A DNA stretch of 37,432 bases, taken from positions 204,813 to 242,244 of the forward strand of contig CAZMLK010000002.1 of the NCBI GenBank assembly GCA_964567265.1. Direction: 5' to 3'. The position numbers and the translations under genes were made by a program. Positions 9,497 through 35,000 of this stretch are shown in pieces. Position 1 is the first letter of the stretch. Each line of letters starts with the position of its first letter. The notes below the pieces were generated by a model. The model saw only the letters and a list, made by a program, of their open reading frames with translations, ran no database searches and was not told the DNA's origin. This DNA is from an uncultured Candidatus Saccharibacteria bacterium. Lineage in GTDB: Bacteria; Patescibacteriota; Minisyncoccia; Phycocordibacterales; UBA12088.

Positions 9497-9549
9497 GTTG
9501 AAACAAAACAGGCCGGGCCCCTTAGGGGCCCGGCCTGTTTTGTTTCAAC
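9497..9549. terminator. 25-bp perfect hairpin between convergent genes
   Basis: GTTGAAACAAAACAGGCCGGGCCCC-TTA-GGGGCCCGGCCTGTTTTGTTTCAAC. The right arm abuts the recG stop codon. Confidence 0.75.
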
Positions 9550-15985: not shown

Positions 15986-16257
15986 TTATTTGTGTATAAA
16001 ATATCTTCTTCGGTGGGGGCGAAATCCATGCCTTTTCTCCCGAAACCACCGTTGATAACGAGATATGCAGAAAAAGCGATCCCGACAATCACGAAGACGA
16101 TAAGAATCATTCCGGCCTGTGCCTCGGTCTTGATCCCTGGCAGTTTCATCGCCATCCGCACCGCCCACGGTGTTTTTTTTGGAGGATTCACTTGAGCTCG
16201 TTGTGCGACTTGATCGATTTCGAATACGACACGCCGAGGATTATTGTCCATGCCCAT
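15982..16257 (-). CDS. small membrane protein, hypothetical (translationally coupled to the orphan pilin)
   Basis: 91 aa with one TM (GMILIVFVIVGIAFSAYLVI). Its TGA stop overlaps the pilin ATG (ATGA). Confidence 0.55.
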   Translation of the reverse strand: MGMDNNPRRVVFEIDQVAQRAQVNPPKKTPWAVRMAMKLPGIKTEAQAGMILIVFVIVGIAFSAYLVINGGFGRKGMDFAPTEEDILYTNK

Positions 16258-18215: not shown

Positions 18216-18875
18216 TTAGTGTGCAATCGCAATCGCGTAGACTTTTTTCGCTCCCGCATCGAGGAGTGCCTTCCGCGCGGCTTCGATGGTCGCGCCCGTC
18301 GTCACGACGTCATCGATGAGCACGATGGTCTTGCCGTTGACCGCTTCCCGGTCTGGGACCGTAAACGCGCCCTTCAGGTTTTCTATACGAGCCTGCCTGG
18401 TTTCCTGGCGAGTTTGAGACGGCGTGCTCTTTGTACGCATTAATGCCGTCGGTGCCAGCACCCATGCTGGTTCTGAAATGACAAAGGCTGTGGCGATGAG
18501 CGCTGCCTGGTTATACCCCCGCTCTTTCTGGCGCGCCGGCGCGAGCGGGATCGGCACCACGAGCAAGGAATCATCATTTTGGAACGAAAGCCATTCCGAA
18601 ATGTCCTCAAGAAGCATGTCGTGCGCGATGGTGCCGAACAATTCCGCTATCTGTTTCCGCCCGCGATACTTGAGCGCCTTCACCGATGCGCTGACGAGCA
18701 GTTTCCGGTAGGGAAGGAGTGCGCGCGTATCATCGGACCAGACGCGCGCGACAGAAACATGCTGCAGGAAATCCTCGATCGATGCCGTGTCTGCCAGTAA
18801 TTCGTCATTCGTCCGCGGAAAAATCAGATCGAGCGCGCGTGCCAGAAGTCCTGTGAGTTTTTTCACAGTAATCAT
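18216..18875 (-). CDS. comFC: ComF-family phosphoribosyltransferase-like competence protein
   Basis: 219 aa. ERGYNQAALIA and the PRPP-binding loop TIVLIDDVVTTGATIEAA are typical of ComFC. The N-terminal Cys zinc finger is absent. Confidence 0.82.
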   Translation of the reverse strand: MITVKKLTGLLARALDLIFPRTNDELLADTASIEDFLQHVSVARVWSDDTRALLPYRKLLVSASVKALKYRGRKQIAELFGTIAHDMLLEDISEWLSFQNDDSLLVVPIPLAPARQKERGYNQAALIATAFVISEPAWVLAPTALMRTKSTPSQTRQETRQARIENLKGAFTVPDREAVNGKTIVLIDDVVTTGATIEAARKALLDAGAKKVYAIAIAH

Positions 18876-18928: not shown

Positions 18929-20095
18929 ATGGGGATTCTTGATACATTGAAGGGTGTACTTCCAAAAAGCGGGCTCGGCAAGGGAGGTGCAAGCGTTATC
19001 GGTATTGATATCGGCTCTTCGTCTATAAAAATCGTGCAGCTCCGGCGCGAACGCGGTGCAGCCGTGCTTGAAACCTATGGCGAATTGGCGCTTGGTCCGT
19101 ATGCAGGACTTGAGACGGGACGCGCGACGCATTTGCCGCCCGAAAAGCTCGCCGAAGCACTGAAAGACATCATGACGGAGGCCAATGTGACGACGAAGAC
19201 CTGTGGCGTCTCGATCCCGTTCTCATCCAGCCTCATCTCGCTCATCGACATGCCGTCTCTTGACCCGCGCCAATTGGCGAAGATGATCCCGATCGAGGCG
19301 CGCAAATACATCCCGGTCCCTATTTCGGAGGTCCAGCTCGACTGGTTCATCCTTCCGGAGGAGGAATCGCACTATATTTCGAGCGAAGAAGGTGAAACGG
19401 CCCAGCAGACGGCCGCTCGGGAAGAGAAAGAGGCGGCGAACCGTTCTCGCGTGCTCCTCGTAGCGATTCACAATGAAGTCCTCACCCGATACGCAGACGT
19501 CCTCAAGGCGGTCCAGCTCACCCCGAGCTTCTACGAGATCGAGATTTTCTCCACTATCCGCGCGACGCTCGACCGCGGCATCGCACCGGCCGCGATGCTC
19601 GACATCGGGGCTGCCGTGACGAAGCTTTACGTGGTTGAGTATGGCATCGTGCGCGTGTCCCATATCATCAACCGCGGCGCGCAGGACATCACGCTCGCCC
19701 TCGCGAAGTCGCTCGGCGTCTCTGTTGCGAAAGCCGAGGAAATGAAGCGTCAGGTAGGCCTCCTTGGTGCAACCATGGAAGGGGACAACAAGAAGATCTC
19801 CGATACCGCGCTCCTCGCGATGGACTATATATTCTCGGAGGCGCGCCGCGCGATCGTCGGCTACGAGAAGAAGTATTCGCGGAACCTGTCAAAGATCGTG
19901 CTCACCGGCGGCGGCGCGCTCCTCGAGGGCATCTTGCCGCTCGCACAGAAGAAATTCGAGGTCGAAGTGACGCAAGGGGACCCATTCTCTCGACTCCAGG
20001 CACCCGCATTCCTTGAGGACGTCCTTCGTTCGGTCGGTCCCGACTTCACGGTCGCGGTCGGCCTCGCACTCCGCAAGCTGCAGGAGTCCGAATAG
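18929..20095 (+). CDS. pilM: type IV pilus assembly protein PilM (actin-like ATPase fold)
   Basis: 388 aa with VIGIDIGSSSIKIVQL phosphate-1 and VLTGGGALLEG motifs. First gene of the pilMNO-type block. Confidence 0.9.
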   Translation: MGILDTLKGVLPKSGLGKGGASVIGIDIGSSSIKIVQLRRERGAAVLETYGELALGPYAGLETGRATHLPPEKLAEALKDIMTEANVTTKTCGVSIPFSSSLISLIDMPSLDPRQLAKMIPIEARKYIPVPISEVQLDWFILPEEESHYISSEEGETAQQTAAREEKEAANRSRVLLVAIHNEVLTRYADVLKAVQLTPSFYEIEIFSTIRATLDRGIAPAAMLDIGAAVTKLYVVEYGIVRVSHIINRGAQDITLALAKSLGVSVAKAEEMKRQVGLLGATMEGDNKKISDTALLAMDYIFSEARRAIVGYEKKYSRNLSKIVLTGGGALLEGILPLAQKKFEVEVTQGDPFSRLQAPAFLEDVLRSVGPDFTVAVGLALRKLQESE

Positions 20096-20187
20096 GATCG
20101 TGAAGATTTCATTCTTCGCTATCAACACTTCAGCCGCTCGCTTCAATACTCCCCGAGTGTATACTAGGAGTGCATCAATCTATTTGC

Positions 20188-20868
20188 ATGGAGCCAAAGT
20201 TTCAGACATCGTTCATTCCAAAGCAATCGCTCGCGCCCTCTCCAGCGGCGCAGCGGCGGAGTGCTTCGAATAGCCGCGCCTTCGGGCTCGGTACGGTGAT
20301 CGCGATCGTCATCTTCATCGGCGCGGTATCGGCATCGGTACTCCTTTTTCTGTATGAGCAGTATCTGACGCGCTCGATCCAAAGCAATCAGGAATCCTTG
20401 GAACGCGCCCGCGAGGCATTCGAGCCGGCCCTCATCAAGGAACTCGGCCGACTGGATGATCGCATCAATGCTGCGAATATCATTTTGAACCAGCACATCG
20501 CGCCGTCTGCACTGTTCACGCTCCTTGAAAGCATCACGCTCCAGAACGTGCAGTTCACCAGTTTCAGCTATACCGGAGAGGGGACGAACGGCATGGTCGC
20601 GATCAGCCTTTCAGGAAAGGCGAAGTCTTTCCAGACCGTCGCGCTCCAGTCAGACCTCCTTGGCAGCAATAGCTACCTCAAGAACACCGTTGTGTCTGAG
20701 CTCGCGCTCGATACGTCAGGCGACGTGACGTTCCAGGTGAATGCCAACGTGGACCCGCGATTCCTGAGCTACCTCAGCAAGGTGCAGAAGAATCCGAGCG
20801 CTCCATCGGGCGCTGCTGAGACCGTCCCAGTCGAGAATCAAGCAACGAGCACCAATCCAAGCATATGA
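20188..20868 (+). CDS. pilN: PilN-like bitopic pilus alignment protein
   Basis: Short cytoplasmic N-terminus, one TM (LGTVIAIVIFIGAVSASVLLFLY), a coiled-coil and an extracytoplasmic domain. Located directly after pilM. The start could be GTG 20170 or ATG 20188. Confidence 0.65.
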   Translation: MEPKFQTSFIPKQSLAPSPAAQRRSASNSRAFGLGTVIAIVIFIGAVSASVLLFLYEQYLTRSIQSNQESLERAREAFEPALIKELGRLDDRINAANIILNQHIAPSALFTLLESITLQNVQFTSFSYTGEGTNGMVAISLSGKAKSFQTVALQSDLLGSNSYLKNTVVSELALDTSGDVTFQVNANVDPRFLSYLSKVQKNPSAPSGAAETVPVENQATSTNPSI

Positions 20869-21410
20869 AGCAGCTTTTCCTTTCACTATTCTTCCTCGGG
20901 GTCTCGATTGGCCTCTTCTTCGTATTCATAGACCCGCATTACGCGAACGTGCAGACGCTCCAGGCACAGAATGCGAGCCTCTCCCAGGCTCTCGATAAGT
21001 CACGCGAGCTCCAGGAGGTCCGCGACGGGCTTCGGGCGCGGTACAATACATTCTCGCCGACCGATCTCCAGAAGCTCACCAAACTCTTGCCTGACAATAT
21101 CGACAATATCCGCCTCATCCTCGATATAGACGCGATCGCCGTGAAGCACAGCCTCCGCGTCGAGGAATTCGGCTTCAGTGAAGGCGGGCGGACCGGACGC
21201 GCTCGTGAGGAAGGTGTGACGCAGGAGGGCCCGTACGGTTCCGTGATTTTCAAATTTTCAGTCAAATCAGACTACGACACGTTCCGCAAGTTCATGGATG
21301 ATCTTGAGAAAAGCCTCCGGATCGTTGACATCACTTCGCTCGGCGTCGTCGGTGGCGAAGGAAGCACCTATACGTTCAATGTCGCTATCCGTACCTATTG
21401 GCTCCAGTAA
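20865..21410 (+). CDS. pilO: PilO-like bitopic pilus alignment protein
   Basis: 181 aa with an ATGA overlap onto the previous gene. N-terminal TM, coiled-coil NVQTLQAQNASLSQALDKSRELQE, and a ferredoxin-like C-domain inferred from position. Confidence 0.65.
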   Translation: MKQLFLSLFFLGVSIGLFFVFIDPHYANVQTLQAQNASLSQALDKSRELQEVRDGLRARYNTFSPTDLQKLTKLLPDNIDNIRLILDIDAIAVKHSLRVEEFGFSEGGRTGRAREEGVTQEGPYGSVIFKFSVKSDYDTFRKFMDDLEKSLRIVDITSLGVVGGEGSTYTFNVAIRTYWLQ

Positions 21411-21841: not shown

Positions 21842-23638
21842 ATGAACGTTTTGACACTACTCGTTGAGCGGGGCCTCATTCAGGAAAAGCAGATTCCTGA
21901 TATCGAGGCAGAAGCCGCAAAGGACGAAGTCTCGATAGAGGCCGTCCTTGCGAAGCGTGGCGTCCCGCTTGAGGAGGTGCTCAAGATCAAGGGGGAGCAT
22001 TTCAGTGTCCCTACGAAGATCATGGAGGGGAAGGATGTACCCTTCGAGGTCCTCCGGTATATCCCCGAAGAATCGGCGACCCACTACCGCTTCGTACCTC
22101 TCGGCATCGTTGACGGCGTGCTCGAGGTCGGCGTGACCGACCCCGACAACATCGAAGCGCTGGATGCGCTCAATTTCATTTCCCAAAAGGAAGATATCCC
22201 GTTCAAGGTCTATCTTATTTCTGAAAGCGACTTCGAGCGCATCCTGGGCGTATACAAAGGCCTGAAGGGAGAAGTTGGACGCGCTATTTCCGAGCTCGAG
22301 ACCGAGTTCGAGCCGGGGAAGAGCGAGGAAGAGGAAGAGCGGGAGAGCACGAAGCTCTCGGAAGATGAGATCAAGGAAGAGGCGCCGGTCACCAAGATCG
22401 TGGCTACCATCCTTCGTGACGCCGTTGAAGGTCGTGCATCCGACATCCACATCGAGCCGACCAACGAGAACGTGCGCGTGCGCTTCCGTCTCGACGGCGC
22501 GCTCCATACCTCGATCATGCTCCCGCTCAACGTCCATCGTGCCGTCGTCGCCCGCATCAAGATCCTCTCTTCGATGAAGCTCGACGAGAAGCGGAAGCCG
22601 CAGGACGGCCGTTTTTCCGCAACCATCAACACTCGAAAGGTCGACTTCCGCGTCTCGACGTTCCCCTCAAGTCACGGCGAGAAGGTCGTGATGCGTATTC
22701 TCGATCGCGAAAAAGGGACCATCACGATGGATTCCCTCGGCTTCAATGCGAAGCAGCAAGCGACGATGAAGCGCGTCGCGGACCTGCCGTACGGGCTCAT
22801 TCTCCTCACCGGCCCTACCGGTTCCGGAAAATCGACCACTCTGTACGCACTCCTCGGCGAGCTCGATCGTGAGAAGCATAACGTGATTTCCCTCGAGGAC
22901 CCTGTCGAATACGACATGGAGGGCGTGAGCCAGTCCCAGATCCGCCCTGAAATCGGCTACACCTTCGCGTCCGGCCTCCGTTCCATCCTCCGCCAGGACC
23001 CTGACATCATCATGGTGGGAGAAATCCGCGACAAGGAGACCGCACAGCTGGCGATCCAGGCATCGCTTACGGGTCACTTGGTGTTCTCGACTATCCATAC
23101 CAACACGGCGGTCGGCGTGATCCCGCGCCTCATCGACATGGGCGTCGATCCGTACCTGATCGCTCCGACCTTGGTCCTTGCCGTCGGCCAGCGCCTTGTG
23201 AGGCGCATCTGCCCGGGCTCGGGCCGGAAGATCCCGCTCGAAGGAAGCGTCAAGATGATGCTCGAGCGGCAGTTTGCCGATCTTCCAGAGCAATATAAGA
23301 AAGAAATCCCGTGGACGGATCATCTTCTCGGCATCCAGGCGACAGGGGATTGTCCCGCCGGCGTCCGTGGCCGTCTCGGCGTCTTCGAATTCTTGGAAAT
23401 GAATCCGACCTTGGAGCAGGCGATCCTCAAAGGCACCAATGAAGCGGACATTTGGAACATTGCCCGCGCAGGTGGCATGCTCACGATGCGAGAGGATGCT
23501 ATCATAAAGGCACTCGAAGGTAAGATTCCGTTCGAGGAGGTGAACGCGCTCGGAGGCGAGCTGCTGCTCGAGGCCGGGGACGAACTCCCAGCGCCCGCAG
23601 CGGCCGAAACTCCGGTCGAAGCAGATACGGAATCATAA
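21842..23638 (+). CDS. pilB: type IV pilus extension ATPase PilB (GspE family)
   Basis: 598 aa with a T2SSE_N-like N-domain, Walker A GPTGSGKSTT, Walker B region DPDIIMVGEIRD and His box TGHLVFSTIHTN. Confidence 0.95.
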   Translation: MNVLTLLVERGLIQEKQIPDIEAEAAKDEVSIEAVLAKRGVPLEEVLKIKGEHFSVPTKIMEGKDVPFEVLRYIPEESATHYRFVPLGIVDGVLEVGVTDPDNIEALDALNFISQKEDIPFKVYLISESDFERILGVYKGLKGEVGRAISELETEFEPGKSEEEEERESTKLSEDEIKEEAPVTKIVATILRDAVEGRASDIHIEPTNENVRVRFRLDGALHTSIMLPLNVHRAVVARIKILSSMKLDEKRKPQDGRFSATINTRKVDFRVSTFPSSHGEKVVMRILDREKGTITMDSLGFNAKQQATMKRVADLPYGLILLTGPTGSGKSTTLYALLGELDREKHNVISLEDPVEYDMEGVSQSQIRPEIGYTFASGLRSILRQDPDIIMVGEIRDKETAQLAIQASLTGHLVFSTIHTNTAVGVIPRLIDMGVDPYLIAPTLVLAVGQRLVRRICPGSGRKIPLEGSVKMMLERQFADLPEQYKKEIPWTDHLLGIQATGDCPAGVRGRLGVFEFLEMNPTLEQAILKGTNEADIWNIARAGGMLTMREDAIIKALEGKIPFEEVNALGGELLLEAGDELPAPAAAETPVEADTES

Positions 23639-23643: not shown

Positions 23644-24057
23644 ATGCACGAGAAAGAAGAGAAAAAAATCCTGATCATCGACGACGATCAATTCCTCGTC
23701 GATATGTACGCGGTGAAGTTCAAAGAAGCAGGATACTCTGTCGACACCTCGCTCGAAGGGAAGGAGGCGCTCAAGAAGCTCCGTGAAAAATCGCTCTGCC
23801 CCGACATCCTGCTCATGGATGTGGTCATGCCCGAGGTGGACGGGTTCCAGATACTCGAGACCATCCGCAAGGAGAATCTCTGCGGCGATCCGATCCTGAT
23901 CGTGCTCTCGAACCAGGGGCAGGATACGGACATCCAGAAGGCGATGGAGCTCGGTGCCCACGGATACATCGTGAAGGCGAACACCATTCCCTCAGAAGTC
24001 CTCGCCAAGGTGACCGAGATTATCGAAAGCAAGGCGCTTAAAGCAACAACTGCATGA
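23644..24057 (+). CDS. single-domain response regulator (CheY/PilH-like) embedded between pilB and pilT
   Basis: 137 aa with IIDDD, phospho-acceptor context ILLMDVVMP, VLSN and YIVKA. Its stop overlaps the pilT ATG (ATGA). Confidence 0.9.
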   Translation: MHEKEEKKILIIDDDQFLVDMYAVKFKEAGYSVDTSLEGKEALKKLREKSLCPDILLMDVVMPEVDGFQILETIRKENLCGDPILIVLSNQGQDTDIQKAMELGAHGYIVKANTIPSEVLAKVTEIIESKALKATTA

Positions 24058-25136
24058 TTGTCGCCCACGAAAAAAAAGATTACAAGAAAGAGCTCGGGGA
24101 ACTGATTGAGACCGTGATGAATGAAGGGGGGTCCGACCTCCACTTTTCTGCGGGCTACCATCCGACCATCCGCGCGCTCGGCTCCCTGATCGCGCTCGCG
24201 AAGCGGGACAAGCTCACCGGCGCGGATACCGAGGGCTTCGCGCAGGTGCTCCTTTCTGACGAACAGCATGAGCGGTTCCTCAGGGAAAAGGAGATCGACT
24301 TTTCATTCAGCTTGGACGGCAAGGCGCGCTTCCGCGGCAACGCATCCTATCAGCGCGGCACCGTCGCGATCGCGCTCCGCTATATCCCGAATACGATTCG
24401 GACGATCGGCGAACTCCGCCTGCCGCCCATCCTCGAGGAATTCGCCGAGCGAAAGCAAGGGTTCTTCCTCGTCGTCGGCCCCGTGGGGCAGGGTAAATCG
24501 ACCACGCTCGCAGCGATGGTCGATTATATCAACACAGCCCGGACCGAGCACATCGTGACCATCGAGGACCCGATCGAGTATGTGTTCGATCCGAAGCAGT
24601 CCGTGATTGACCAGCGCGAAGTCCTTATCGATACCAATGATTTCCATACTGCGCTCAAGTCGGCGTTCCGCCAGGACGTGAACGTAATCATGGTCGGCGA
24701 GATGCGGAGTCCGGAGACCATCTCGACTGCTGTCACCGCGGCGGAAACCGGTCACCTCGTCCTTTCGACCCTCCACACCAACAACGCATCCCAGACCATC
24801 GACCGCATCATCGATAGCTTCTCCTCGACGCAGCAGGATCAGATCCGCATGCAGCTCGGCGCGAGCTTGGTCGGCATCTTCTCGCAGCGGCTCATCCCGG
24901 GGATCGCCGGAGGACTTGTGCCCGCATACGAGCTCCTCATCAATAACAAAGCCATCGCAAACCTGATCCGGGAGAAGCGCACGCATGAGATCAACACCGT
25001 GATCGAGACCGGCTCTCAGGAGGGCATGGTCAGTATGAACCGATCGCTCGCGGATCTCGTCCGCAAAGGGGAGATCACGATCGAGAACGCCTTCCGCTTC
25101 TCGCTTGACCCTACCGTCCTTGAACGTCTCGTATAA
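24054..25136 (+). CDS. pilT: type IV pilus retraction ATPase PilT
   Basis: 360 aa with Walker A GPVGQGKSTT, RQDVNVIMVGEMR, TGHLVLSTLHTNNA and the PilT-type AIANLIREKRTHE motif. Confidence 0.95.
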   Translation: MIVAHEKKDYKKELGELIETVMNEGGSDLHFSAGYHPTIRALGSLIALAKRDKLTGADTEGFAQVLLSDEQHERFLREKEIDFSFSLDGKARFRGNASYQRGTVAIALRYIPNTIRTIGELRLPPILEEFAERKQGFFLVVGPVGQGKSTTLAAMVDYINTARTEHIVTIEDPIEYVFDPKQSVIDQREVLIDTNDFHTALKSAFRQDVNVIMVGEMRSPETISTAVTAAETGHLVLSTLHTNNASQTIDRIIDSFSSTQQDQIRMQLGASLVGIFSQRLIPGIAGGLVPAYELLINNKAIANLIREKRTHEINTVIETGSQEGMVSMNRSLADLVRKGEITIENAFRFSLDPTVLERLV

Positions 25137-25141: not shown

Positions 25142-26350
25142 ATGCTTTTCCAATACACAGCATTCGATGCGGGCGGCGCCGAGAAAACCGGCACCGTTGA
25201 AGCAATTAATCAGGATGTCGCGATCAGCTCGCTGCAGCGGCGCGGCCTGGTCATTTCTTCGATCGCGGCTGTCGAGGAAAATAAGGGGCTTTTTGAGAAC
25301 ATCAAGCTCTTCAACCACGTTTCCAACAAGGAGATCGTCATCATCTCGCGCCAGATCGCGACACTCTTCGAAGCACAGGTTTCCGCGCTCCGCGTGTTCC
25401 GTCTGCTCGGCGCTGAATCAGAGAATCTCGCGCTCCGTGAGGTCTTGACCATCGTCGCCGACGATCTCCAGGGTGGCTCGACGATCTCAGGCGCGCTCTC
25501 GAAGCATCCGGACGTCTTCTCGGGCTTTTATACAAACATGGTCAAGGCGGGCGAAGAAGCCGGAAAACTAGACCAAACCTTCCTCTTCCTTGCGGACTAT
25601 CTCGATCGCACCTATGAAGTCACGACGAAGGCGCGGAACGCGCTCGTCTACCCGGCGTTCGTCATCTCCACCTTCCTCGTCGTCATGATCCTCATGATGA
25701 CTGTGGTGATCCCGCGTCTCGGCACCATCATCGAGGAATCGGGGCAGCAGGTACCAATCTACACCAAGGCAGTGCTTGGCATCAGCCATCTCTTCGTGGA
25801 TTACAGCGTATTCCTCTTCATTGGCCTCGCGGCGCTCGCGGTTTTCCTCTGGCGCTACATCCTTACCGACGCCGGCAAGAATGCGCTCGATACGCTCAAG
25901 CTCGAAGTCCCATACCTCGGCACGCTCTTCCGCAAGCTCTACCTCTCTCGCATCGCTGACAACCTCTCGACCATGCTCGGAAGCGGTATCCCGATGGTGC
26001 GCGCGCTCGAGATCACGTCCGAAGTGGTGGGGAACCGTCTCTACGAACAGGCGCTCGCGGATATCATGACTGGCGTCAAGAACGGTGTCTCGGTTTCGGA
26101 TGCATTCGCTGGGCACACTGACCAGATGCCAGGGCTCCTTGTACAAATGATCAAGGTCGGTGAGGAAACCGGAGAACTTGGGAATATCCTCAACATGCTC
26201 GCTAAATTCTATCGCCGCGAGGTCAATAATGCGGTGGATACGCTTATCGGCCTCATCGAGCCGGCCATGATCGTCGGCCTCGGCCTCGGTGTCGGCCTCC
26301 TCCTGGTCTCAGTCCTCGTCCCGATCTATCAGATCTCCTCGAGCGTCTAG
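25142..26350 (+). CDS. pilC: type IV pilus platform protein PilC (GspF family)
   Basis: 402 aa with a duplicated T2SSF domain and three hydrophobic TM segments. Canonical position after pilT. Confidence 0.94.
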   Translation: MLFQYTAFDAGGAEKTGTVEAINQDVAISSLQRRGLVISSIAAVEENKGLFENIKLFNHVSNKEIVIISRQIATLFEAQVSALRVFRLLGAESENLALREVLTIVADDLQGGSTISGALSKHPDVFSGFYTNMVKAGEEAGKLDQTFLFLADYLDRTYEVTTKARNALVYPAFVISTFLVVMILMMTVVIPRLGTIIEESGQQVPIYTKAVLGISHLFVDYSVFLFIGLAALAVFLWRYILTDAGKNALDTLKLEVPYLGTLFRKLYLSRIADNLSTMLGSGIPMVRALEITSEVVGNRLYEQALADIMTGVKNGVSVSDAFAGHTDQMPGLLVQMIKVGEETGELGNILNMLAKFYRREVNNAVDTLIGLIEPAMIVGLGLGVGLLLVSVLVPIYQISSSV

Positions 26351-26490
26351 GGGGCAGTGAGTTATACACATAAAAGAGGGAGGGGGCGAGCGTCCTGTCC
26401 TATAATTATTATCGTACCTCTTTGCAAATAGATTCGTGCGGAAGACGGTCGTGTTCAATAAGAAGTGTCATTAGTAATAGTCTGTTTTTT

Positions 26491-26982
26491 ATGGATAGTA
26501 CGTACAAGCGAGGTTTCACCCTCATCGAACTCCTCGTCGTCATCGCCATCATCGGTATCCTCTCGTCGGTCGTTCTCGCCTCGCTCTCAAGTGCCCGCCA
26601 GAAGGCACGTGATGCACAGCGTCTGTCGGACATGCGCGAAGTCTCAAAGGTCATCGCCCTTACGCAGGGAAATGCGGCAACAACCATGACCGGCTGTGCC
26701 TCCCAGAATGCACGCCTTAGTACCTGCACCGTCACCTTCGTCGACTTGGCTCAGTACAAGGATCCGTCTGGCTCGACCACTGCATGTACCGCCGCATCGG
26801 TTGCCGGTACCGCCTGTGACTACTCCATCTCGCTTCTTGCAGGTGGCGCCGGAAACCCGACCAACGAGAATTGGCACGTGAAGTTCAACCTCGAAGTCGG
26901 AGCAGGCTCGCTCCCTGCAGGGCTCAACTGTATCAAGGGCCCGACCGGCTCATTCGCGAGCGGCGCGACGAACTGCCCGTAA
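26491..26982 (+). CDS. type IV major pilin candidate, paralog 1
   Basis: The ORF track entry 26422..26982 was trimmed to ATG 26491. Class III signal MDSTYKRG|[22 protein letters not shown] with Glu+5. Three Cys pairs and a C-terminal ...NCP. Confidence 0.9.
   Translation: MDSTYKRGFTLIELLVVIAIIGILSSVVLASLSSARQKARDAQRLSDMREVSKVIALTQGNAATTMTGCASQNARLSTCTVTFVDLAQYKDPSGSTTACTAASVAGTACDYSISLLAGGAGNPTNENWHVKFNLEVGAGSLPAGLNCIKGPTGSFASGATNCP
26507..26682 (+). repeat. pilin N-terminal identity block (copy in paralog 1)
   Basis: 100% identical to 27205-27380. The subsegment 26516-26640 is also identical to 27935-28059. Confidence 0.9.
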
Positions 26983-27000
26983 TACAACATCGGTTGGAGA

Positions 27001-27034
27001 TACAAAATACCCCCGAAGCGGGGTTATTTTGTAT
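27001..27034 (+). terminator. terminator after pilin paralog 1
   Basis: TACAAAATACCCC-CGAAGC-GGGGTTATTTTGTA forms a stem with one bulge. Confidence 0.6.
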
Positions 27035-27189
27035 AAAAAAGACGGCAGCGCAGCGGTTTATCCACACATTGAAGGGAAGACTTTGCAGTTCTGTCCTATA
27101 ATTACCGCTGTACCTTCTTGCAAAGCTATTAACACGCAAAGACGGTCGCACTCTCTATAGGTAATTACTCATAGCCATAGTTTGTTTTT

Positions 27190-27678
27190 ATGAATACATC
27201 TTCGAAGCGAGGTTTCACCCTCATCGAACTCCTCGTCGTCATCGCCATCATCGGTATCCTCTCGTCGGTCGTTCTCGCCTCGCTCTCAAGTGCCCGCCAG
27301 AAGGCACGTGATGCACAGCGTCTGTCGGACATGCGCGAAGTCTCAAAGGTCATCGCCCTTACGCAGGGAAATGCGGCAACCGCGCTTGCTGGCTGTACCG
27401 CAGCAAATGCTCGCCTTACTACGTGTACGGGCGCATTCGTCGATCTCGCGCAGTACAAGGATCCGTCTGGCTCGACCACTGCATGTACGACTGCCGCAGT
27501 TGCAGGTACTGCTTGTGACTACGCGGTGGCTAAGATTTCAGGTGCCGCTGCAGCGACCAATGAAGATTGGTCGGTCAAATTCAACCTCGAAGTCGGAGCA
27601 GGCTCGCTCCCTGCAGGACTCAACTGTATCGTTGGTCCTACCGGAGGTTTCAAGAGCGGAACGACGAATTGTCCGTAG
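27190..27678 (+). CDS. type IV major pilin candidate, paralog 2
   Basis: MNTSSKRG|FTLIELL... A 176-nt block is identical to paralog 1 (27205-27380 equals 26507-26682). Same Cys pattern and ...NCP end. Confidence 0.9.
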
Positions 27679-27702
27679 GCAATACGATACCTATTTGGAA
27701 CA

Positions 27703-27735
27703 CCGTCCTGCTGCATGAGCGCAGGGCGGTTTTTC
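27703..27735 (+). terminator. rho-independent terminator after pilin paralog 2
   Basis: CCGTCCTGC-loop-GCAGGGCGG followed by TTTTT. Confidence 0.7.
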
Positions 27736-27910
27736 GTCTGAGTATCGGCATTTTCGCGAGCGCAGTTGACTCCGGAGTCTCGAATAACCGGAAACGCCCC
27801 GGATTATCAACAGGGGATTCGCTCGTGGCTGCCTGATTCATGCGTCGATGGGGTAGTATAGAGAAGTAGTCCAGATTGATTTTTAAGTAACTGCAAAACC
27901 CTGCATTAGT

Positions 27911-28408
27911 ATGAATACATCACGAACTCGCGGCTTCACCCTCATCGAACTCCTCGTCGTCATCGCCATCATCGGTATCCTCTCGTCGGTCGTTCTCGCC
28001 TCGCTCTCAAGTGCCCGCCAGAAGGCACGTGATGCACAGCGTCTGTCGGACATGCGCGAGATGTCGAAGGTGATCGCGCTTACGCACGGCACGGCAGCAA
28101 CCACCTTTACGGGATGCGTCCTTCAGAATGGCCGGCCGTCGAGTCCTGCATGTACTGGTTCATTTGCCCAGCTCGCGCTTTACAAGGACCCTTCAGGTGC
28201 AACGACCGCATGTACGGCGGCATCAGTGGCGGGCACGGCTTGTGACTACTCCATATCCAAAGCTGCAGGCGGAGCCGGAGCAGCGTCGAATGAGGATTAT
28301 CAAATCAAATTCAACCTCGAAGTCGGAGCAGGCTCGCTCCCCGCAGGGCTCAACTGTATCGTCGGGCCTTCTGGAAGCCTGAAATCCGGCGCCGCAAACT
28401 GCCCGTAA
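27911..28408 (+). CDS. type IV major pilin candidate, paralog 3
   Basis: MNTSRTRG|FTLIELL... A 125-nt block is identical to paralog 1 (27935-28059 equals 26516-26640). Same Cys pattern and ...NCP end. Confidence 0.9.
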   Translation: MNTSRTRGFTLIELLVVIAIIGILSSVVLASLSSARQKARDAQRLSDMREMSKVIALTHGTAATTFTGCVLQNGRPSSPACTGSFAQLALYKDPSGATTACTAASVAGTACDYSISKAAGGAGAASNEDYQIKFNLEVGAGSLPAGLNCIVGPSGSLKSGAANCP

Positions 28409-28878
28409 TGCGATTCGTATACCACAAAGAGCGCCACTTTCAGGGCTTCACGCTGATCGAGCTTCTGGTGGTAATCTCCATCATCGGCATCCTCTCGACG
28501 GTCGTCCTGAATTCGCTCGGGACGGCCAGGCTGAAGGGTCGCGACGCGACGCGAATCTCGGACCTAAAGCAGATCCAGTTGGCACTTGAACTCTACTTCG
28601 AGTCGGGTAACAATGCCTATCCTGCGGCACTCTCAAACCTTTCTCCGCAGTATGTGCAGACGGTGCCACGCGACCCGCGGACAGGGAACAACTACATTTT
28701 CGAACAGACGGGAAGCGGTACCGGATACCATGTCGGAGCTCTCCTCGAGCTCTCGAATGACATCATGCTGACCGACGCAGACGCGACGACCACCAGCTTC
28801 GGCGGCGCCACGTCTGATTGTGCGACGACTGGCATTACCGTCGCTGCCAATGAACGCTGCTACGATATATCGCAGTAA
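28408..28878 (+). CDS. type IV pilin-like protein (GspG/PilE-like), upstream of pilD
   Basis: MRFVYHKERHFQG|[16 protein letters not shown] with Glu+5. Contains the RDATRISDLKQIQLALELYF motif. Its start overlaps the previous stop (TAATG). Confidence 0.88.
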   Translation: MRFVYHKERHFQGFTLIELLVVISIIGILSTVVLNSLGTARLKGRDATRISDLKQIQLALELYFESGNNAYPAALSNLSPQYVQTVPRDPRTGNNYIFEQTGSGTGYHVGALLELSNDIMLTDADATTTSFGGATSDCATTGITVAANERCYDISQ

Positions 28879-28899: not shown

Positions 28900-29721
28900 G
28901 TGGAAACTCTCATCGCTACGTACATATTCGTACTCGGTCTCCTGGTCGGGAGCTTCGTGAACGTGCTTGTCCTTCGGCATGAGACAGGGGAGGGGGTCGG
29001 TGGAAGATCCCATTGCGGCAAATGCCGCCGCCAGCTCTCTTGGTTCGAGAATGTTCCGCTCCTTTCGTTCCTCGTGCTTCGCGGCAAATGCCGTACCTGT
29101 AGAGAACGAATCTCGTTCCAGTACCCTCTTGTCGAACTCCTGACCGCATCACTCTACCTCCTCGTGTGGCAGGCAGCCTTTCCGCTCCCGCGAACCATTC
29201 TGATCCTCCTCGCGACCCTATTCCTGGTTGCCATTGTCGTCTACGACCTCAGGACCACCATCATTCCCGATGAATTTGTTATTCCGTGGAATCTGCTCGC
29301 GTTCCTGTCGGTTTTTATCGGGACAAGCGCCGTCACGATGCCCTCGATCGCAGCATTTCTGGCTGGACCGCTCCTCGCGCTGCCGTTCGCGCTCCTCTGG
29401 GTCATGTCGGGCGGTCGGTGGATCGGACTCGGCGATGCGAAGCTCGCGCTCGGCATGGGCTGGTTCCTCGGATTGATACCTGGTTTTTCTGCGGTGATAC
29501 TTTCATTCTGGATCGGCGCCGTAACCAGTCTCCTCCTCCTGGCCCTCAGCAAGGTTCTCCCCCATATCGTGAAGCTCCTCCCATTGCCCTCAAGTACTCG
29601 TCACCTTACAATGAAGAGCGAGGTGCCGTTCGCGCCATTCCTGGTCATTGGCTTCTATATCGGCCTCCTGAGCCACATCGATCTCTTCGTACTGCCGATT
29701 CGCGCGCTTGGCGGATTCTAA
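28900..29721 (+). CDS. pilD: prepilin peptidase (A24 family) PilD
   Basis: 273 aa with a GTG start. N-terminal LVGSFVNVLVLR, Cys pairs CGKC...CRTC, catalytic Asp contexts VVYDLRTTIIPDE and GLGDAKL, and a polytopic topology. Confidence 0.92.
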   Translation: METLIATYIFVLGLLVGSFVNVLVLRHETGEGVGGRSHCGKCRRQLSWFENVPLLSFLVLRGKCRTCRERISFQYPLVELLTASLYLLVWQAAFPLPRTILILLATLFLVAIVVYDLRTTIIPDEFVIPWNLLAFLSVFIGTSAVTMPSIAAFLAGPLLALPFALLWVMSGGRWIGLGDAKLALGMGWFLGLIPGFSAVILSFWIGAVTSLLLLALSKVLPHIVKLLPLPSSTRHLTMKSEVPFAPFLVIGFYIGLLSHIDLFVLPIRALGGF

Positions 29722-29734
29722 TTTGAAACAGCAT

Positions 29735-30199
29735 ATGCAACGGTTCCTGATGAAATTGAAATCCGACCCGGCACGCGGGTTCTCGCTCATCGAGCTCTTG
29801 GTCGTGATCACCATCATCGCGGTCCTGACGACGCTCACCATTTCAGGGCTCAACTCTGCACGCATCAAGGGCCGGGATGCGGATCGCGTTTCCGATATCA
29901 AGCAGATACAGCTTGCGCTCGAACTCTATTACGACGCAAACCACTTCTATCCGAACAGCACGACTGAGACGGCCGTGACGACCGCACTTGCAGGGTTGGT
30001 GAGCGGGGGATTCATGGCGGTGATCCCGGATGATCCGCTGACGACCCAGCACTATATGTACAAGAGCAGCTCCGCGAGCGGTTCCACCGCATACTGCGTA
30101 GGCGCGAATCTCGAGGGTGCATCCCAAGGAGCATCAACCTGCACTACGCCTACCCTCACGGCGACGTATGATTACAGCGCGGGTCCCCAGGGCCCATGA
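29735..30199 (+). CDS. type IV pilin-like protein, paralog of 28408..28878
   Basis: ...KSDPARG|[16 protein letters not shown] with Glu+5 and RDADRVSDIKQIQLALELYY. The start could be ATG 29735 or ATG 29750; the ORF track TTG 29708 overlaps pilD. Confidence 0.85.
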   Translation: MQRFLMKLKSDPARGFSLIELLVVITIIAVLTTLTISGLNSARIKGRDADRVSDIKQIQLALELYYDANHFYPNSTTETAVTTALAGLVSGGFMAVIPDDPLTTQHYMYKSSSASGSTAYCVGANLEGASQGASTCTTPTLTATYDYSAGPQGP

Positions 30200-30867
30200 T
30201 GGAAGGAGAACGCATGAGTACTTTTCAGAAAATAATCGCAGCGCTCCACGTCCCACGCACGGGCCGTGCTTCGTTTTTGCAGAATGCCGCTTCGCGCGGC
30301 TTCACGCTCATCGAGCTTCTGGTGGTCATATCGATAAGCATGCTCCTCCTCCTCTCGGTCCTCTTTCTCGATATCGGCCCGAAGGGGAAGCCGTCCGTCG
30401 ACACTGCGGCGCAGCAGCTCTCTGTCATCGTGCGGCAAGCGCTTGCGTACGGCCTTGCAATCGTCGGAACGAACAACAACTTCGATGTCGGCTATGGCGT
30501 ACGCGTGAATACGAATGCGGCGACGCAGGCGATCCTGTACGTCGATGTCAACAAGAATAACCTCTTCGATGCGGGGGACACTACCATGCAGACGCTGACT
30601 TTTCCTTCCGACGTAACCGTCCAGAAGTTCTGCGTCGACAAGGGGAGCACCCCTACGTGTTACAACGCAGGTGCATCCAGCAACGCGCTCGACATCAGTT
30701 TCGCGCGCTCATCGTTCATCGGCGTCATCTCGGTCACGCCGAATGGAGGTTCTGCGGACAAGACGTGGGCCACGACGACGATCTATCTCCAGAGCGCCTC
30801 GGATCCGGCAATCATCGAGCAGGTGAAGGTGAATCGAGCCGGACTTGTTGATATTATCGGCATATGA
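30196..30867 (+). CDS. minor pilin (GspH/FimT-like)
   Basis: ...NAASRG|[16 protein letters not shown] with Glu+5. ATG 30196 (ATGA coupling) would give a 35-aa leader. An in-frame TTG at 30277 would give a typical 8-aa leader, so the start is ambiguous. Confidence 0.8.
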   Translation: MMEGERMSTFQKIIAALHVPRTGRASFLQNAASRGFTLIELLVVISISMLLLLSVLFLDIGPKGKPSVDTAAQQLSVIVRQALAYGLAIVGTNNNFDVGYGVRVNTNAATQAILYVDVNKNNLFDAGDTTMQTLTFPSDVTVQKFCVDKGSTPTCYNAGASSNALDISFARSSFIGVISVTPNGGSADKTWATTTIYLQSASDPAIIEQVKVNRAGLVDIIGI

Positions 30868-31388
30868 ACCTGAACCGTATTTTCAAAAAGAACAAGGAGA
30901 CTGAGAAGGGATTCACCCTCGTTGAGATGATGGTCTCCGTAGCGCTCTTCGTCATCATCATGATGGTCTTGGTGGACTTGTTCATCTCGCTCCTCGTCGC
31001 GAACCGCAAGGCGCAGTCGCAGAAGTTTGTCTACGACAACGTGTACAGCTCGATTGAGATCATCACGAGGCATATCCGTTCGGGAACCGGATATAATTGC
31101 CCCGGGGGAGCGTGCTCGACATTCTCGTTCACGGACGCGGATGGAAATTCCGTGACCTATCGGGTCCAGAACGGTGTCATCCAGCGTTCAATGAACGGAG
31201 GTGCCTATGATGACATCACGGCGGGAAACATCACGATCGACAATCTCAAATTCTATACGTTCGGCGATAATGTGACCCAGCAGGAGCGCGTCCTCGTCAT
31301 CATCGCGGGGAAGGCGGGTACGGGGGCCACGCTCTCGACCTTCACCGTGCAGACGACCATCTCGCAGGCGCTCCTTACCGAATTTTAA
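30864..31388 (+). CDS. minor pilin (PilW/GspJ-like)
   Basis: MNLNRIFKKNKETEKG|FTLVEMMVSVALFVIIM with Glu+5. ATGA overlap with the previous gene. Confidence 0.8.
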   Translation: MNLNRIFKKNKETEKGFTLVEMMVSVALFVIIMMVLVDLFISLLVANRKAQSQKFVYDNVYSSIEIITRHIRSGTGYNCPGGACSTFSFTDADGNSVTYRVQNGVIQRSMNGGAYDDITAGNITIDNLKFYTFGDNVTQQERVLVIIAGKAGTGATLSTFTVQTTISQALLTEF

Positions 31389-31389
31389 T

Positions 31390-31950
31390 ATGCAGCATTC
31401 CACCAACAATCAGGCAGGCTTCACGCTCATCGAGACTCTGGTCGCGCTCACAATCATCACGATCGGCATCATCGGGCCCCTTACACTCCTCCAGCGGAGC
31501 TTGAATGCGACCGTATATGCCAAGGAGAAGGTGACGGCGATCTTCCTCGCGGAAGATGCGCTCGAATACCTGAAGAATGTTCGAGACAGCGATGCTTTGA
31601 GCGCCATGACGGACCAGAATACGGCAACCGACTACTTTTTCGGGGACATCATCCCGAAGTGTCTCGACAAGAGCTGCAAGATCGAGACGACGACTGATTA
31701 CCCGAGCGACCACGCGACCAATCCGAGCGTGACGGTCTGTTCCGGCACCTGCGCCGCCTTGAATTACAGCCCATCTCTGGACGTGTACAGCTATAAGACT
31801 GGCTCTGATTGGGCTGCGTCCGTCTACACGCGGACGATCATCATCACTAAATTCGCTTCAGGCGAATATAAGGCGCAGGTGAAGATGACGTGGAAAGGGC
31901 ATACGGTCGTCATCGAGCGCAACTTCCAGAACATCGTGCGCAATATCTAG
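31390..31950 (+). CDS. minor pilin (PilV/GspI-like)
   Basis: MQHSTNNQAG|FTLIETLVALTIITIGI with Glu+5. 186 aa. Confidence 0.8.
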   Translation: MQHSTNNQAGFTLIETLVALTIITIGIIGPLTLLQRSLNATVYAKEKVTAIFLAEDALEYLKNVRDSDALSAMTDQNTATDYFFGDIIPKCLDKSCKIETTTDYPSDHATNPSVTVCSGTCAALNYSPSLDVYSYKTGSDWAASVYTRTIIITKFASGEYKAQVKMTWKGHTVVIERNFQNIVRNI

Positions 31951-32088: not shown

Positions 32089-35000
32089 ATGAACACTAAC
32101 AAACTCAAATCCGCCCTCGCCCGACTCCCACGCGGGGAAGGATTCACCCTCCTCTACGCCATCATCATGGTGGCAGCAGTCCTCTTCATCACCACCTCAG
32201 CACTCTTCCTTCTCACGAGGCAGGTCCGTTTCGCCACCATCTCCAATGACTCCCAGGATGCCTACTACGCTGCAGAGTCTGCAGGCGAATGCATCCTCTC
32301 CTACGCCCAGGCCGGCGTGTTCGACAAGGGCATCGTCCAGGACATCGTGTGTGATGGGGTGACGTATCGTACTGACGGGTCTCCGAAGCAGACCTTCAAG
32401 ATCAAAATCACGAACCCGACGACAGGTCTCGAGACGGTCGCGATCGTCACTGTTGATACGGTAAAGAAGACTATCGATTCCCTCGGATATAACAGCGATG
32501 ACGAGACGCTCCCCACCCGCCTCCAGCGCGCCATCACCTTCCGCTACAAGTCGTATTGTCCGATCGGAGGGGACGTGATGATCCTCGCGGACACTTCAGG
32601 CAGTATTGATGCTTCAGAATTGGTCATATACAAGAAATCGATCAAATACCTTATAGACAGGATTTATGCGGCCGAACCGACCACCAACGTTGGTCTGATC
32701 GAGTTTAATACAAATGCGCAGGTCAGAGACAACATGAAAGCGTTGAATGCAGGAACATATCTCGCAGATCTCAAGGCGGATGTGGATTTGCTGGGTGAGT
32801 ACTCGGGGCGCACTCACACTTCGATCGCTCTTCGTAGTGCATGGCTTCAATTCCAGGACTTGAAGGACTCGAGCTCCAATTCCTATGATCCGACAGGCAT
32901 CTTTAACAGTGATTCACCTCCGGCCGAAATGAGTGGCGGCATGATCGAGGGGGCTGATATTGTCCCCATCAACCCTCCCGTGAATCGCGATGACGAAGAG
33001 TATTCGAATCATGTGATCCTTTTCACGGATGGCGGACCGAACGACTGGATTTCCACAAGCTCAGTCCGTATCAGTGGCGTGTTAAAACCGAAAGGGTTTT
33101 ATATTGACTCCCCGTGCAAATGGAATGCCGATGGCTCGGTGTACGCCGACAGTAATGACACGGCTCCAGGGTGCTATAAGGGTGCCTTCACCATTCCCGC
33201 GCAGTATAGTTTCATGAAAGAGGCGACGAACCTTAAGACGCTTGCAACGCTCTATACGGTTGCGATCGGTCTCGGCACCGACCCTGATGGAGCAGGATCA
33301 GATGAGTGCCTTCCGGGCGTCACCTGCCTCCAGCAGATGCAAGAGGCGGCAACCACGCCAGATCTTTCGTGGGTGGCAAATGATTTCAACGAAGCCCGGC
33401 TGAACCAGATCGCCGACGAAATTCTTGCCTGCAATATTCCGATCAAGAATGGAAACACCGCGCCGATCGTCCTCGGCGGCTATCCGACAGGCTCACTCCC
33501 GCAGGGGACGACCCAGACGACTATGTCGGTGACCACCAATGAGGATGCCCAGTGCAAATGGAGCACGGGTGACGTGTCCTATGGCGCGATGGCGAATACG
33601 TTTACGACTACCGGTACCAAGTCCCACTCGACGACGTTGACCGGCCTCACCAACAATACTTCCTATACGCGTTACATCCGTTGCCAGGATTCAGGAGGGC
33701 TCGAAAGCACGCCAGGCTACATCATCAGTTTTTCTGTCGCAGCAGGCTCGAGCGATACGACAGTTCCGTCGGTCCCCGCAGGACTCACTGCAAATCCCAT
33801 CTCATCAACCCAAATCAACTTGTCATGGACAGCATCCACCGATAATGTTGCAGTGACAGGTTACGAGCTCCAGCGGTGCGCGGGGGCGTCGTGTACAAAT
33901 TTCACCAGCTTGTCGACGCCGACAGGGACTACCTACAACAATACGGGCCTTACTGCCGGAACAACCTATCGCTACAAAGTTCGCGCGCGCGACGCCGCTT
34001 CGAACTGGTCGGCATATTCTTCAATAGTGGATGGTGCAACCTCCGCGGGTGCCGTTTCCATTCCGACAGGCTATCTTGCTTATTTCCCCTTCAATGAGGG
34101 AAGTGGCGCAACGGCTGCGAATGCCGCGGGATCAGGGAATGCATCCCTCCTCGGCACCTATTCGTGGGTCACACGCGGATCCGGGAACGCTATCGATTTC
34201 AATGGGGCATCAGGCCGCGCATCAGTCGGGGACGTCACCTTCCTCGACGGACTCAGTAAAGCCACGTTTGCTACCTGGATGAACTGGGACAGTAAATCGA
34301 CCAATTCAAGTCAGTCGATCATGCGGAAGGACGGCACCATCACGCTCATGCAATCGAACAACAGCACCTCTCTTTGGCGTTCAACCATATGGGCACCGAC
34401 GAGCGTCGCGCATGCCGTCCCGCTTTCGAACATCCCGACCGGCACCTGGACGCATGTCGCGGTGGTCTGGGACAACAGTGTAAATTCCGGAAAACCGAAG
34501 CTGTATGTGAACGGTGCATTCGTGATGGATTACCCTACAGGGAGTACGGGCGTTACTGCAAATTCATCGAACGCGCTCATGTTCGGCGCAACCGAGTCAA
34601 ACACGGAATGGTACGACGGGAAGCTCGACGACGTGATTATCTACGGACGGGCGCTTACTGCTACCGAAGTGAATAATCTCTATAACGCAACGCAGACCTC
34701 CGCTCCCTCCGCTGATACGACCGCTCCAACCGCTCCAACCGGCCTCAGACTTCTAGACGATTCCGCTACGACCGTCGCGGTCGATTGGAACGCGTCGACC
34801 GATGCAGTCGGCGTCACTGGATATGAAGTGCAGCGTTGTACGGGTGCTTCCTGTACGTCATGGGTAACGGTTGAAAGTCCGACAGCGACCGATCATGAGA
34901 GTACGGGACTTTCCGCGGGAACCGTCTACCGGTTCCGCGTGCGCGCCCGCGATGCCGCAGGGAACTGGTCCGCGTACTCCTCGATTGTCGATACACAGAC

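Follow-up and report, generated by a model that had tools for sequence, protein, structure and literature searches.

Tandem major-pilin paralogs with shared core blocks and a probable history of gene conversion in the type IV pilus locus of an uncultured Patescibacteria bacterium

Type IV pili are thought to be the main tool with which the ultra-small bacteria in the Candidate Phyla Radiation (CPR)/Patescibacteria attach to their hosts and take up DNA, and to our knowledge the Paceibacteria have no cultured representative. Here we describe three adjacent major-pilin genes, p1, p2 and p3, in a complete type IV pilus locus on a stretch of 37,432 nucleotides (nt) of contig CAZMLK010000002.1 from an uncultured member of the Patescibacteria. 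The whole stretch is called the window, and all positions refer to it. The three genes share blocks of identical sequence which, judging from the sequence comparisons, are gene-conversion tracts between tandem paralogs. We consider it probable that the array consists of old tandem paralogs with conversion-homogenised cores, the products of which are assembled into one mixed fibre.

26491-26982, plus strand: p1, major pilin paralog 1, 163 amino acids
27190-27678, plus strand: p2, major pilin paralog 2, 162 amino acids
27911-28408, plus strand: p3, major pilin paralog 3, 165 amino acids, with the most diverged head

Shared blocks and the evidence for gene conversion

All three copies are intact, as the initial annotation had held; each encodes a complete prepilin with an ATG start codon, a short class III prepilin leader, a glutamate at position +5 and a stop codon. 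The cleavage site (marked by a slash) is KRG/F in p1 and p2, the p1 leader being MDSTYKRG/F, and TRG/F in p3. Each protein contains six cysteines and is matched by the Pfam family N_methyl (PF07963) with E-values of 2e-9 to 6e-9, above the gathering score. Glycine, alanine, serine and threonine (GAST) account for 44–46% of the three proteins (44% in p1) vs 26% of PilB, and a high GAST content serves as a criterion for the major pilin (PMC11623550). With this composition, with their place as the first genes after pilC, and with a promoter and a terminator of their own in the case of p1 and p2, the three genes appear to be tandem paralogs of the major subunit of a single type IVa-like pilus.

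The AlphaFold2 model of p1 (predicted local distance difference test score, pLDDT, 89) has the shape of a lollipop, in which residues 11-57 form the helix α1 and the head contains a four-stranded β-sheet; in this model Cys147 and Cys162 flank the C-terminal loop. A Foldseek comparison of the model with the PDB gave no significant match for the head domain, the top-ranked matches being pilins (9iuf, 1oqw), and a profile search matched solved pilins through α1 only. Mature residues 1-42 are identical in p1, p2 and p3 and residues 1-56 in p1 and p2, p3 departing from the other two at three positions up to residue 56. The heads are 68–75% identical to each other.

At the nucleotide level this conservation takes the form of exact blocks. 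The blocks that had been listed in the initial annotation do exist, however its coordinates for the first copy were 1 nt off, so that literally only the pair 26752-26789 = 27451-27488 was identical, and a block given as 39 nt (26884-26922 = 27580-27618) extends over 38 nt. The corrected blocks, and the three conversion tracts A, B and C in p1, are as follows.

26506-26681 = 27205-27380: 176 nt, p1 and p2
26515-26639 = 27214-27338 = 27935-28059: 125 nt, p1, p2 and p3
26752-26789 = 27451-27488: 38 nt, p1 and p2
26884-26921 = 27580-27617: 38 nt, p1 and p2
27575-27611 = 28305-28341: 37 nt, p2 and p3
26884-26915 = 28310-28341: 32 nt, p1 and p3
26506-26681 in p1: tract A, encoding leader residues K-3, R-2 and G-1 and mature residues 1-55, the inner 125 nt also present in p3
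26752-26789 in p1: tract B, residues 87-99, p1 and p2 only
26884-26934 in p1: tract C, residues 129-147 in the central β-strands, near-identical in all three genes (38 nt to p2; 32 and 18 nt to p3)

The large block begins three codons ahead of the G/F cleavage site in p1 and p2 and at the first codon past it in p3. Outside the blocks, the leader peptides and the upstream DNA of p1-p3 differ.

The suggestion of the initial annotation that gene conversion takes place among the copies is supported by a comparison with the pilin on contig L001 (NCBI GCA_020050275.1), the only close relative outside the array, with a PilC fragment of 97% amino-acid and ~80% nucleotide identity. Synonymous (dS) and non-synonymous (dN) divergence were calculated according to Nei-Gojobori, and α1 was defined as prepilin codons 8-64 (Gly-1 and mature residues 1-56). 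In α1 the paralogs show a dS of 0-0.2 vs 0.55 to L001 at identical amino acids. In detail, α1 dS is 0.02 between p1 and p2, 0.20-0.23 between either of them and p3 (zero across the first 125 nt), and 0.55 (dN 0.008) between p1 or p2 and L001, while for the globular part dS between the paralogs reaches 0.82-1.49. Codon positions at which all four genes encode one and the same amino acid number 41 in α1 and 57 in the head. In α1, 0-2 of the 41 are different between paralogs vs 11-13 in the comparison with L001, and in the head 19-28 of the 57 are different between paralogs.

The inner tracts show a similar picture. In tract B the proportion of synonymous differences (pS) is 0.10 between p1 and p2 vs 0.41 to L001 and 0.75-0.85 to p3, and in tract C it is 0.18-0.26 between the paralogs vs 0.69-0.74 to L001. 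In a Sawyer-type permutation of the polymorphic sites, p was <5e-5 in every pairwise comparison (none of 20,000 shuffles). The three four-taxon site patterns occur in clusters, and the phylogenetic signal along the gene is thus a mosaic (runs test, p=0.006). As in concerted evolution, the paralogs are closer to each other within the converted tract, whereas outside it p2 is closer to L001, here represented by one outgroup gene. In the head, the proportion of non-synonymous differences (pN) between p2 and L001 is 0.09 vs 0.17-0.20 for p2 to p1 and p3.

An explanation without any recombination would invoke selection at the nucleotide level (codon bias, mRNA structure, signals for the signal recognition particle or for translation) or a recent duplication of the 5' half only, and seems very improbable to us. 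In its favour, the synonymous rate of α1 between species lies below that of PilC (dS 0.55 vs 1.67), and the fraction of identical codons in pilin N-termini already has a baseline of 0.55. However, for the same amino acids the L001 pilin uses a different codon at 11 of 41 positions, vs 0-2 of 41 among the paralogs, and the other pilins of the same locus, p4 and four minor pilins, use other codons for the same GFTLIELLV motif. As an internal control, their 61–82% nt identity to p1-p3 in this motif indicates that codon usage does not explain an identity of 100%. In addition, the leaders and 5' untranslated regions are not significantly structured, homogenisation extends to internal blocks that lie far from the 5' end, and the flanking non-coding DNA is diverged, which argues against a recent duplication of whole units.

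For an approximate calibration we used the dS of PilC, which is 1.67 to L001 and 0.50 to a sister strain (contigs L206, L207 and L208 from SRR31757429/26/30) with a PilC that is 100% identical as a protein and 91% identical in nucleotides. Because of this calibration, the duplications leading to p1-p3 would predate the split from the sister strain and the conversion of α1 would be younger than the split.

The segments between the blocks had been described as hypervariable. They are indeed strongly diverged (pS 0.6-0.9), but pN/pS is 0.15-0.61 in every segment and pair (loop residues 65-86, 100-128 and 148-163), which marks old divergence under purifying selection rather than hypervariable cassettes. 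Amino-acid states that are common to p1 and p3 in the heads differ at many synonymous sites, and any exchanges of head segments must therefore be ancient. Since it is the conserved N-terminal part that gets converted, the net effect of conversion is homogenisation and not diversification.

Transcription units and the surrounding pilus locus

The statement that p1 and p2 each possess a TATAAT box, a conserved leader and a terminator was confirmed, the leaders (~80 nt) being conserved in part. Both genes thus appear to be autonomous transcription units, with the following predicted elements.

26362-26406, plus strand: p1 promoter, DnaA-box-like TTATACACA (26362-26370), 30-nt spacer, TATAAT (26401-26406)
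27000-27034, plus strand: intrinsic terminator hairpin after p1, -20.7 kcal/mol, z -4.68
27058-27102, plus strand: p2 promoter, TTATCCACA (27058-27066), 30-nt spacer, TATAAT (27097-27102)
27702-27735, plus strand: intrinsic terminator after p2, GC-rich hairpin (27702-27730) followed by TTTTT, -25.8 kcal/mol, z -3.46
27804-27860, plus strand: candidate weaker p3 promoter, motif variant TTATCAACA (27804-27812) with TAGTAT 41 nt further on

A scan with the sigma-70 consensus did not find a full -35/-10 promoter; the TATAAT boxes stand without a canonical -35 element. The upstream region of p3 is unlike those of p1 and p2, and the distance between motif and box in its candidate promoter comes near to the second spacing class of our survey (see below). 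As the stop codon of p3 overlaps the start codon of p4 (TAATG), p3, p4 and the genes downstream probably share a transcript.

An Rfam scan of the window returned two tRNAs only and nothing in the pilin leaders, and folding of the leaders gave z-scores of about 0, that is, no significant structure in the 5' untranslated region. The first ~35 nt of the predicted pilin mRNAs (26413-26450 and 27109-27146, and also in L001 and in the related locus L084) contain the conserved elements GTACCTCTTT ... AAGAYGGTCG, which are able to pair as a 5'-terminal hairpin; its energy is no better than that of shuffled sequences and no covariation was seen. This hairpin is a candidate for an mRNA-stabilising or regulatory element.

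The array lies between pilC and p4, and the locus encodes a dedicated assembly set of PilM, N, O, B, T and C together with PilD. All genes listed are on the plus strand, and those marked Pfam were assigned by domain.

18929-20095: PilM (Pfam)
20170-20868: PilN (Pfam)
20865-21410: PilO (Pfam)
21842-23638: PilB (Pfam)
23644-24057: response regulator with a receiver domain only (Pfam)
24054-25136: PilT (Pfam)
25142-26350: pilC, platform protein, the final assembly gene ahead of the pilin array (Pfam T2SSF, E 3.9e-58)
28408-28878: p4, a different pilin-like protein, 156 amino acids
28900-29721: pilD, prepilin peptidase (Pfam A24_N_bact and Peptidase_A24)
29708-31950: four minor pilins (Pfam)
32089-35682 and 35900-37246: two tandem pilin-like VWA proteins of 1197 and 448 amino acids

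No pilQ was found in the locus by Pfam assignment of its genes, as is usual in CPR/Patescibacteria (PMC6744442). Among named relatives, those closest to the pilins and to PilC belong to Candidatus Paceibacterota, Parcubacteria and Kaiserbacteria. The p4 gene is not homogenised with p1-p3, its N-terminal block having ~80% nt identity.

Directly upstream of pilM, a gene with a ComF-like phosphoribosyltransferase domain is located on the minus strand (18216-18875); its position is kept in L206 and in the related contigs L209 and L210, a hint that pilus and DNA uptake may be connected. An orphan pilin of a fifth type with an N_methyl domain (15410-15985, minus strand, 191 amino acids) lies 10 kb upstream of the locus. 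Its N-terminal block has 79% nt identity to p1-p3, and the motif TTATACACA is found directly ahead of its start codon (15991-15999, minus strand). RecG helicase is encoded 15 kb upstream of the pilins (9549-11705, minus strand), probably as a coincidental housekeeping gene. The open reading frame 7524-9491 (655 amino acids, C-terminal lamin-tail domain) carries five tandem repeats of ~249 nt at 7809-8933, which are 61–82% identical, and its product is probably a repetitive surface protein. Finally, ARAGORN predicted a tRNA-Ile with the anticodon UAU (7268-7341, minus strand), a less common bacterial way of reading AUA, which is otherwise read by a lysidine-modified CAU tRNA.

The different setting of p3 raises the question whether the three subunits are specialised without co-assembly, either as condition-specific subunits or as distinct fibres, for example for adhesion vs DNA uptake, that are built by the same machine. 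Thermus makes wide and narrow pili, and the Saccharibacteria member TM7x thick and thin ones. In line with such a division, the p3 upstream region is different and p3, unlike p1 and p2, is coupled to p4 and pilD; the heads have long been kept distinct under purifying selection; the ComF-like gene beside pilM makes both DNA uptake and adhesion plausible; and TM7x indeed builds two distinct pili. We nevertheless regard specialisation as rather unlikely. That p1 and p2 agree in promoter motif, spacing, -10 box and leader elements argues for a common regulation, the known two-fibre cases use clearly different pilins (in TM7x even different machineries) and not paralogs that are 75–80% identical and have the same α1 helix or one with three exchanges only, and the near-identical paralogs of Streptococcus sanguinis co-polymerise.

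Recurrence in related genomes

The gene order PilO-x-PilB-RR-PilT-PilC-(major pilin)-(p4-like)-PilD, where RR is the response regulator, is conserved among relatives, which also keep the position of p4 between major pilin and pilD. The number of major pilins varies, being one in L084, L085 and L086, two in L083 and three here. L083 is a 501-kb contig of another Paceibacteria species (GCA_964429815.1) with two tandem major pilins at 5432-6492 that share an exact block of 323 nt. This block begins exactly at the G-1/F+1 codons and spans two thirds of the protein, after which the identity falls to ~60–65%, and the two pilins differ only in their C-terminal ~45 residues.

Our survey comprised 211 loci; a looser N-terminal pattern applied to metagenome contigs gave 119 loci, which were for survey use only. 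At least two adjacent family members were present in 20 of the 86 pilin clusters. A general homogenisation of the 5' parts of adjacent pilin pairs was considered and had to be rejected, the median fraction of identical codons at positions with the same amino acid being 0.55 for adjacent pairs (60 pairs) vs 0.56 for non-adjacent ones. Outliers with a fraction of at least 0.9 were found in this window and in L083, L197 and L181; in the latter two, homogenised N-termini are combined with unrelated heads.

A comparable arrangement occurs a second time within the window. The two tandem VWA/PilX-like genes share an exact block of 483 nt (32098-32580 = 35909-36391, codons 4-164), the longest exact repeat of the window, past which ungapped identity collapses; they thus exhibit the same 5'-homogenised and 3'-diverged pattern as the major pilins. 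The VWA protein of 1197 amino acids carries fn3 and LamG domains.

The upstream arrangement recurs as well. GTTATCCACA-N30-TATAAT is found ahead of pilin genes across diverse Patescibacteria (L001, L002, L083-L085, L206-L208 and ~20 metagenome loci), and a second class of spacing between motif and TATAAT lies near 40 nt. The exact motif followed by N28-32 and TATAAT has 24 matches in 1.63 Mb of loci. In 20 of these a pilin start follows at a distance of 70-155 nt; of the remaining four, three are located at the contig ends of L206-L208, and that in L159 has no pilin start within 250 nt. Overall, the motif is present in 89 of 292 unique pilin upstream regions (30%) vs 4.6% of random windows. 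No link of this motif to pilins or Patescibacteria was found in the literature searched. Pilin expression may be controlled through GTTATCCACA as a site for an activator or for DnaA, and in uncultured CPR bacteria the arrangement could help to locate the genes of major pilins as well as their regulator.

Short-read contigs (Logan, k=31) of four related species all stop at the pilin module downstream of pilC. In detail, L206, L207 and L208, from three independent samples, end at the same base 73 nt past pilC, within promoter and leader; L209 and L210 end within the first α1 block, L002 within the α1 block of a second tandem pilin, and L001 48 nt past the first pilin. These breaks fit repeated modules in the genomes of the relatives. 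The exact repeats account for the failure of short-read assemblies at the pilin locus, and pilin copy number and diversity are therefore probably underestimated in metagenome-assembled genomes, copy number being systematically lost in short-read assemblies of such organisms.

The same repeats raise the possibility that the triplet is an artefact, in which strain alleles were stitched into a false array or a repeat was collapsed or expanded. It is true that exact repeats of 125-176 nt are not spanned by short reads and that the k=31 assemblies of the relatives break exactly here. However, two unique intergenic regions each join the 3' end of one head and its terminator to the next promoter and leader; an origin from allelic variants is unlikely because such variants cannot create these junctions. 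Furthermore, the window lies within a contig of 242 kb, the independent 501-kb contig L083 from another species has the same tandem design with its 323-nt repeat, and the sequence of L002 reaches a second tandem pilin ahead of its break. We give hardly any credence to an artefact.

The recurrence of the design in adhesin-like genes also bears on programmed antigenic, phase or host-range variation, for which the initial annotation had pointed to the pilE/pilS system of Neisseria. The identical blocks would then anchor frequent exchange of heads among the expressed copies, or deletion and duplication, and the surface of the pilus would vary at high frequency. Several observations could be taken in this sense: the mosaic phylogenetic signal within the heads, the range of one to three pilin copies among relatives, the same design in the tandem adhesin paralogs, and tract boundaries that seem to differ in the sister strain, whose first leader is p1-like ahead of the -10 box and p2-like past it. 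Moreover, CPR episymbionts bind to their hosts by means of type IV pili (PMC11623550, PMC9894109). In its broadest form, the pilin triplet and the VWA pair together would be a head-swapping system of a CPR episymbiont that works by recombination and without a dedicated recombinase. Crossovers would be anchored in the in-frame 5' blocks of exact identity, which measure 125-176 nt in the pilin genes and 483 nt in the adhesin genes, and frequent conversion, deletion and re-duplication would change the head or adhesin that is made from the strong pilin promoter. Cell lineages would thereby gain pilus surfaces that differ in host binding or in the evasion of phages.

The likeness to Neisseria did not hold, however. 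Searches with the heads (blastn and tblastn) detected no silent, promoterless or 5'-truncated pilin copies in the 37-kb window, a G-quadruplex (G4) motif of the form (G3+N1-7)x4 was absent from both strands across it, inverted repeats were not found in it, and none of its large open reading frames contains a recombinase or invertase domain; moreover, the N-terminal part is what is converted. Only three donors would be available, the tracts of zero divergence sit in conserved parts and the head exchanges are ancient, and pN/pS is 0.2-0.5 in the variable loops. Population variants were absent as well from 5.8 billion protein clusters and from JGI metagenome contigs. In detail, the protein clusters contained no same-species pilin variant of >60% identity besides P0002, and the C-terminal motif of the family, EVGAGxLPAGLNC, had 0 matches in the JGI contigs. 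A scan of genome contigs with the family alignment gave no close relatives among the matches listed, which were mostly unrelated pilins of Planctomycetota, Verrucomicrobiota and others. Programmed variation therefore appears unlikely, and we are just as doubtful of a head-swapping system that includes the adhesins. The array is rather a case of fairly ordinary gene-family evolution than of antigen switching in the style of Neisseria.

A mixed fibre and its known counterparts

Our preferred explanation, that of old paralogs with homogenised cores in one fibre, can be put as follows. Non-reciprocal recombination between the direct repeats has recently re-homogenised the α1 segment and the central β-strand block in all three genes, as well as residues 87-99 in p1 and p2. 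Conversion would start and resolve only in near-identical stretches, core blocks under protein constraint would stay identical, and the surface loops, which differ by ~25–30% in nucleotides, would escape it; an alternation of invariant and diverged segments would hence need no dedicated machinery. p1 and p2 would be independent and similarly regulated units consisting of GTTATCCACA-N30-TATAAT, an ~80-nt leader and a terminator, and p3 would head an operon with p4 and pilD. Co-regulation of p1 and p2 is suggested by their common upstream motif, which in both cases lies 30 nt from an identical -10 box.

All three prepilins would be cut by PilD at G/F and polymerised by PilB, PilC and PilMNO into one stochastic heteropolymeric fibre with a mosaic surface. 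The subunits should be interchangeable because the helices that form the filament core are identical (mature residues 1-42, and 1-56 in p1 and p2). As a side effect, in-frame crossovers within the identical blocks might give rise to copy-number variants and chimeric pilins. Co-expression and co-assembly of p1-p3 into a mixed fibre is a plausible function and the best that we can infer.

Several points weigh against this explanation. Co-expression and co-assembly are a matter of inference, and p3 has no canonical promoter spacing. N-terminal homogenisation is sporadic, with ~8% of adjacent pairs as outliers. The synonymous constraint on α1 between species, seen in its low dS relative to PilC, means that the conservation is partly selective. 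The dates are rough, as synonymous changes in the heads come close to saturation. With a single outgroup pilin on a contig that ends past the first gene, orthology cannot be assigned copy by copy, and which head belongs to which 5' flank across the 125-176-nt repeats is taken as the assembly gives it.

If several major pilins with an identical core and different surfaces are kept, pili may be mosaic or variable, and mosaic pili would, if real, be relevant to host range, to the evasion of phages and to immune-like recognition. A description of tandem or concerted pilins in Paceibacteria/CPR was not found in the literature searched.

In Neisseria, a single expressed pilE is accompanied by many silent pilS copies that have no promoter and are truncated at the 5' end, recombination is started by a G4 structure and a small RNA, and the variable segments are truly hypervariable. 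The array resembles this system in a RecA-type non-reciprocal transfer among pilin copies that gives mosaic genes, and in conserved blocks, some of them bounded by cysteines, that alternate with variable ones. It differs in that its copies are all complete and probably expressed, with neither silent copies nor a G4 motif, that its main converted segment is the N-terminal constant region which pilS copies lack, and that its variable parts are under purifying selection. With tfpQ/tfpI of Moraxella bovis/lacunata, where inversion needs inverted repeats and the site-specific invertase Piv, it has in common a constant N-terminal coding region combined with alternative C-terminal head segments; here, however, the repeats are direct, and no inverted repeats or recombinase gene were found in the window.

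Closer parallels are found among filaments with more than one subunit. The tandem flagellin genes flaA and flaB of Campylobacter jejuni reportedly undergo concerted evolution, as is said to have been described by Meinersmann and Hiett in 2000. They, too, are tandem paralogs for one extracellular filament whose similarity is kept by intragenomic recombination, each with its own promoter and both with subunits in the same filament. Unlike p1 and p2, which share one promoter type, flaA and flaB are flagellar, have promoters of different sigma factors and are homogenised over most of the gene.

Archaeal archaellin arrays likewise encode tandem subunits with class III signal peptides, conserved N-terminal helices and divergent heads. 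The subunits ArlB1 and ArlB2 of Methanocaldococcus villosus form a heteropolymeric type IV filament in which they alternate regularly by way of heterodimers, according to the passage of PMC10628169 that cites this work. That filament differs from the one proposed here by its regular alternation and belongs to another domain of life with another machinery.

The closest counterpart might be PilE1 and PilE2 of S. sanguinis, two adjacent major pilins that form one heteropolymeric type IV pilus in a monoderm by stochastic co-polymerisation (Anger et al. 2023, PMC10628169). In both cases the major pilin genes are adjacent, full-length and highly similar and belong to a type IV pilus locus without PilQ, the differences are confined to the surface of the head, and a conserved α1 should make the subunits interchangeable. 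The present array has three copies instead of two, its p1 and p2 are separate promoter-terminator units, it belongs to the CPR and not to the Firmicutes, and its mixed fibre is predicted from the genes. We know of no description of homogenisation tracts at the nucleotide level as a feature of pilE1/pilE2. Tandem major-pilin paralogs, heteropolymeric type IV filaments and the concerted evolution of genes for filament subunits are, each for itself, already known.

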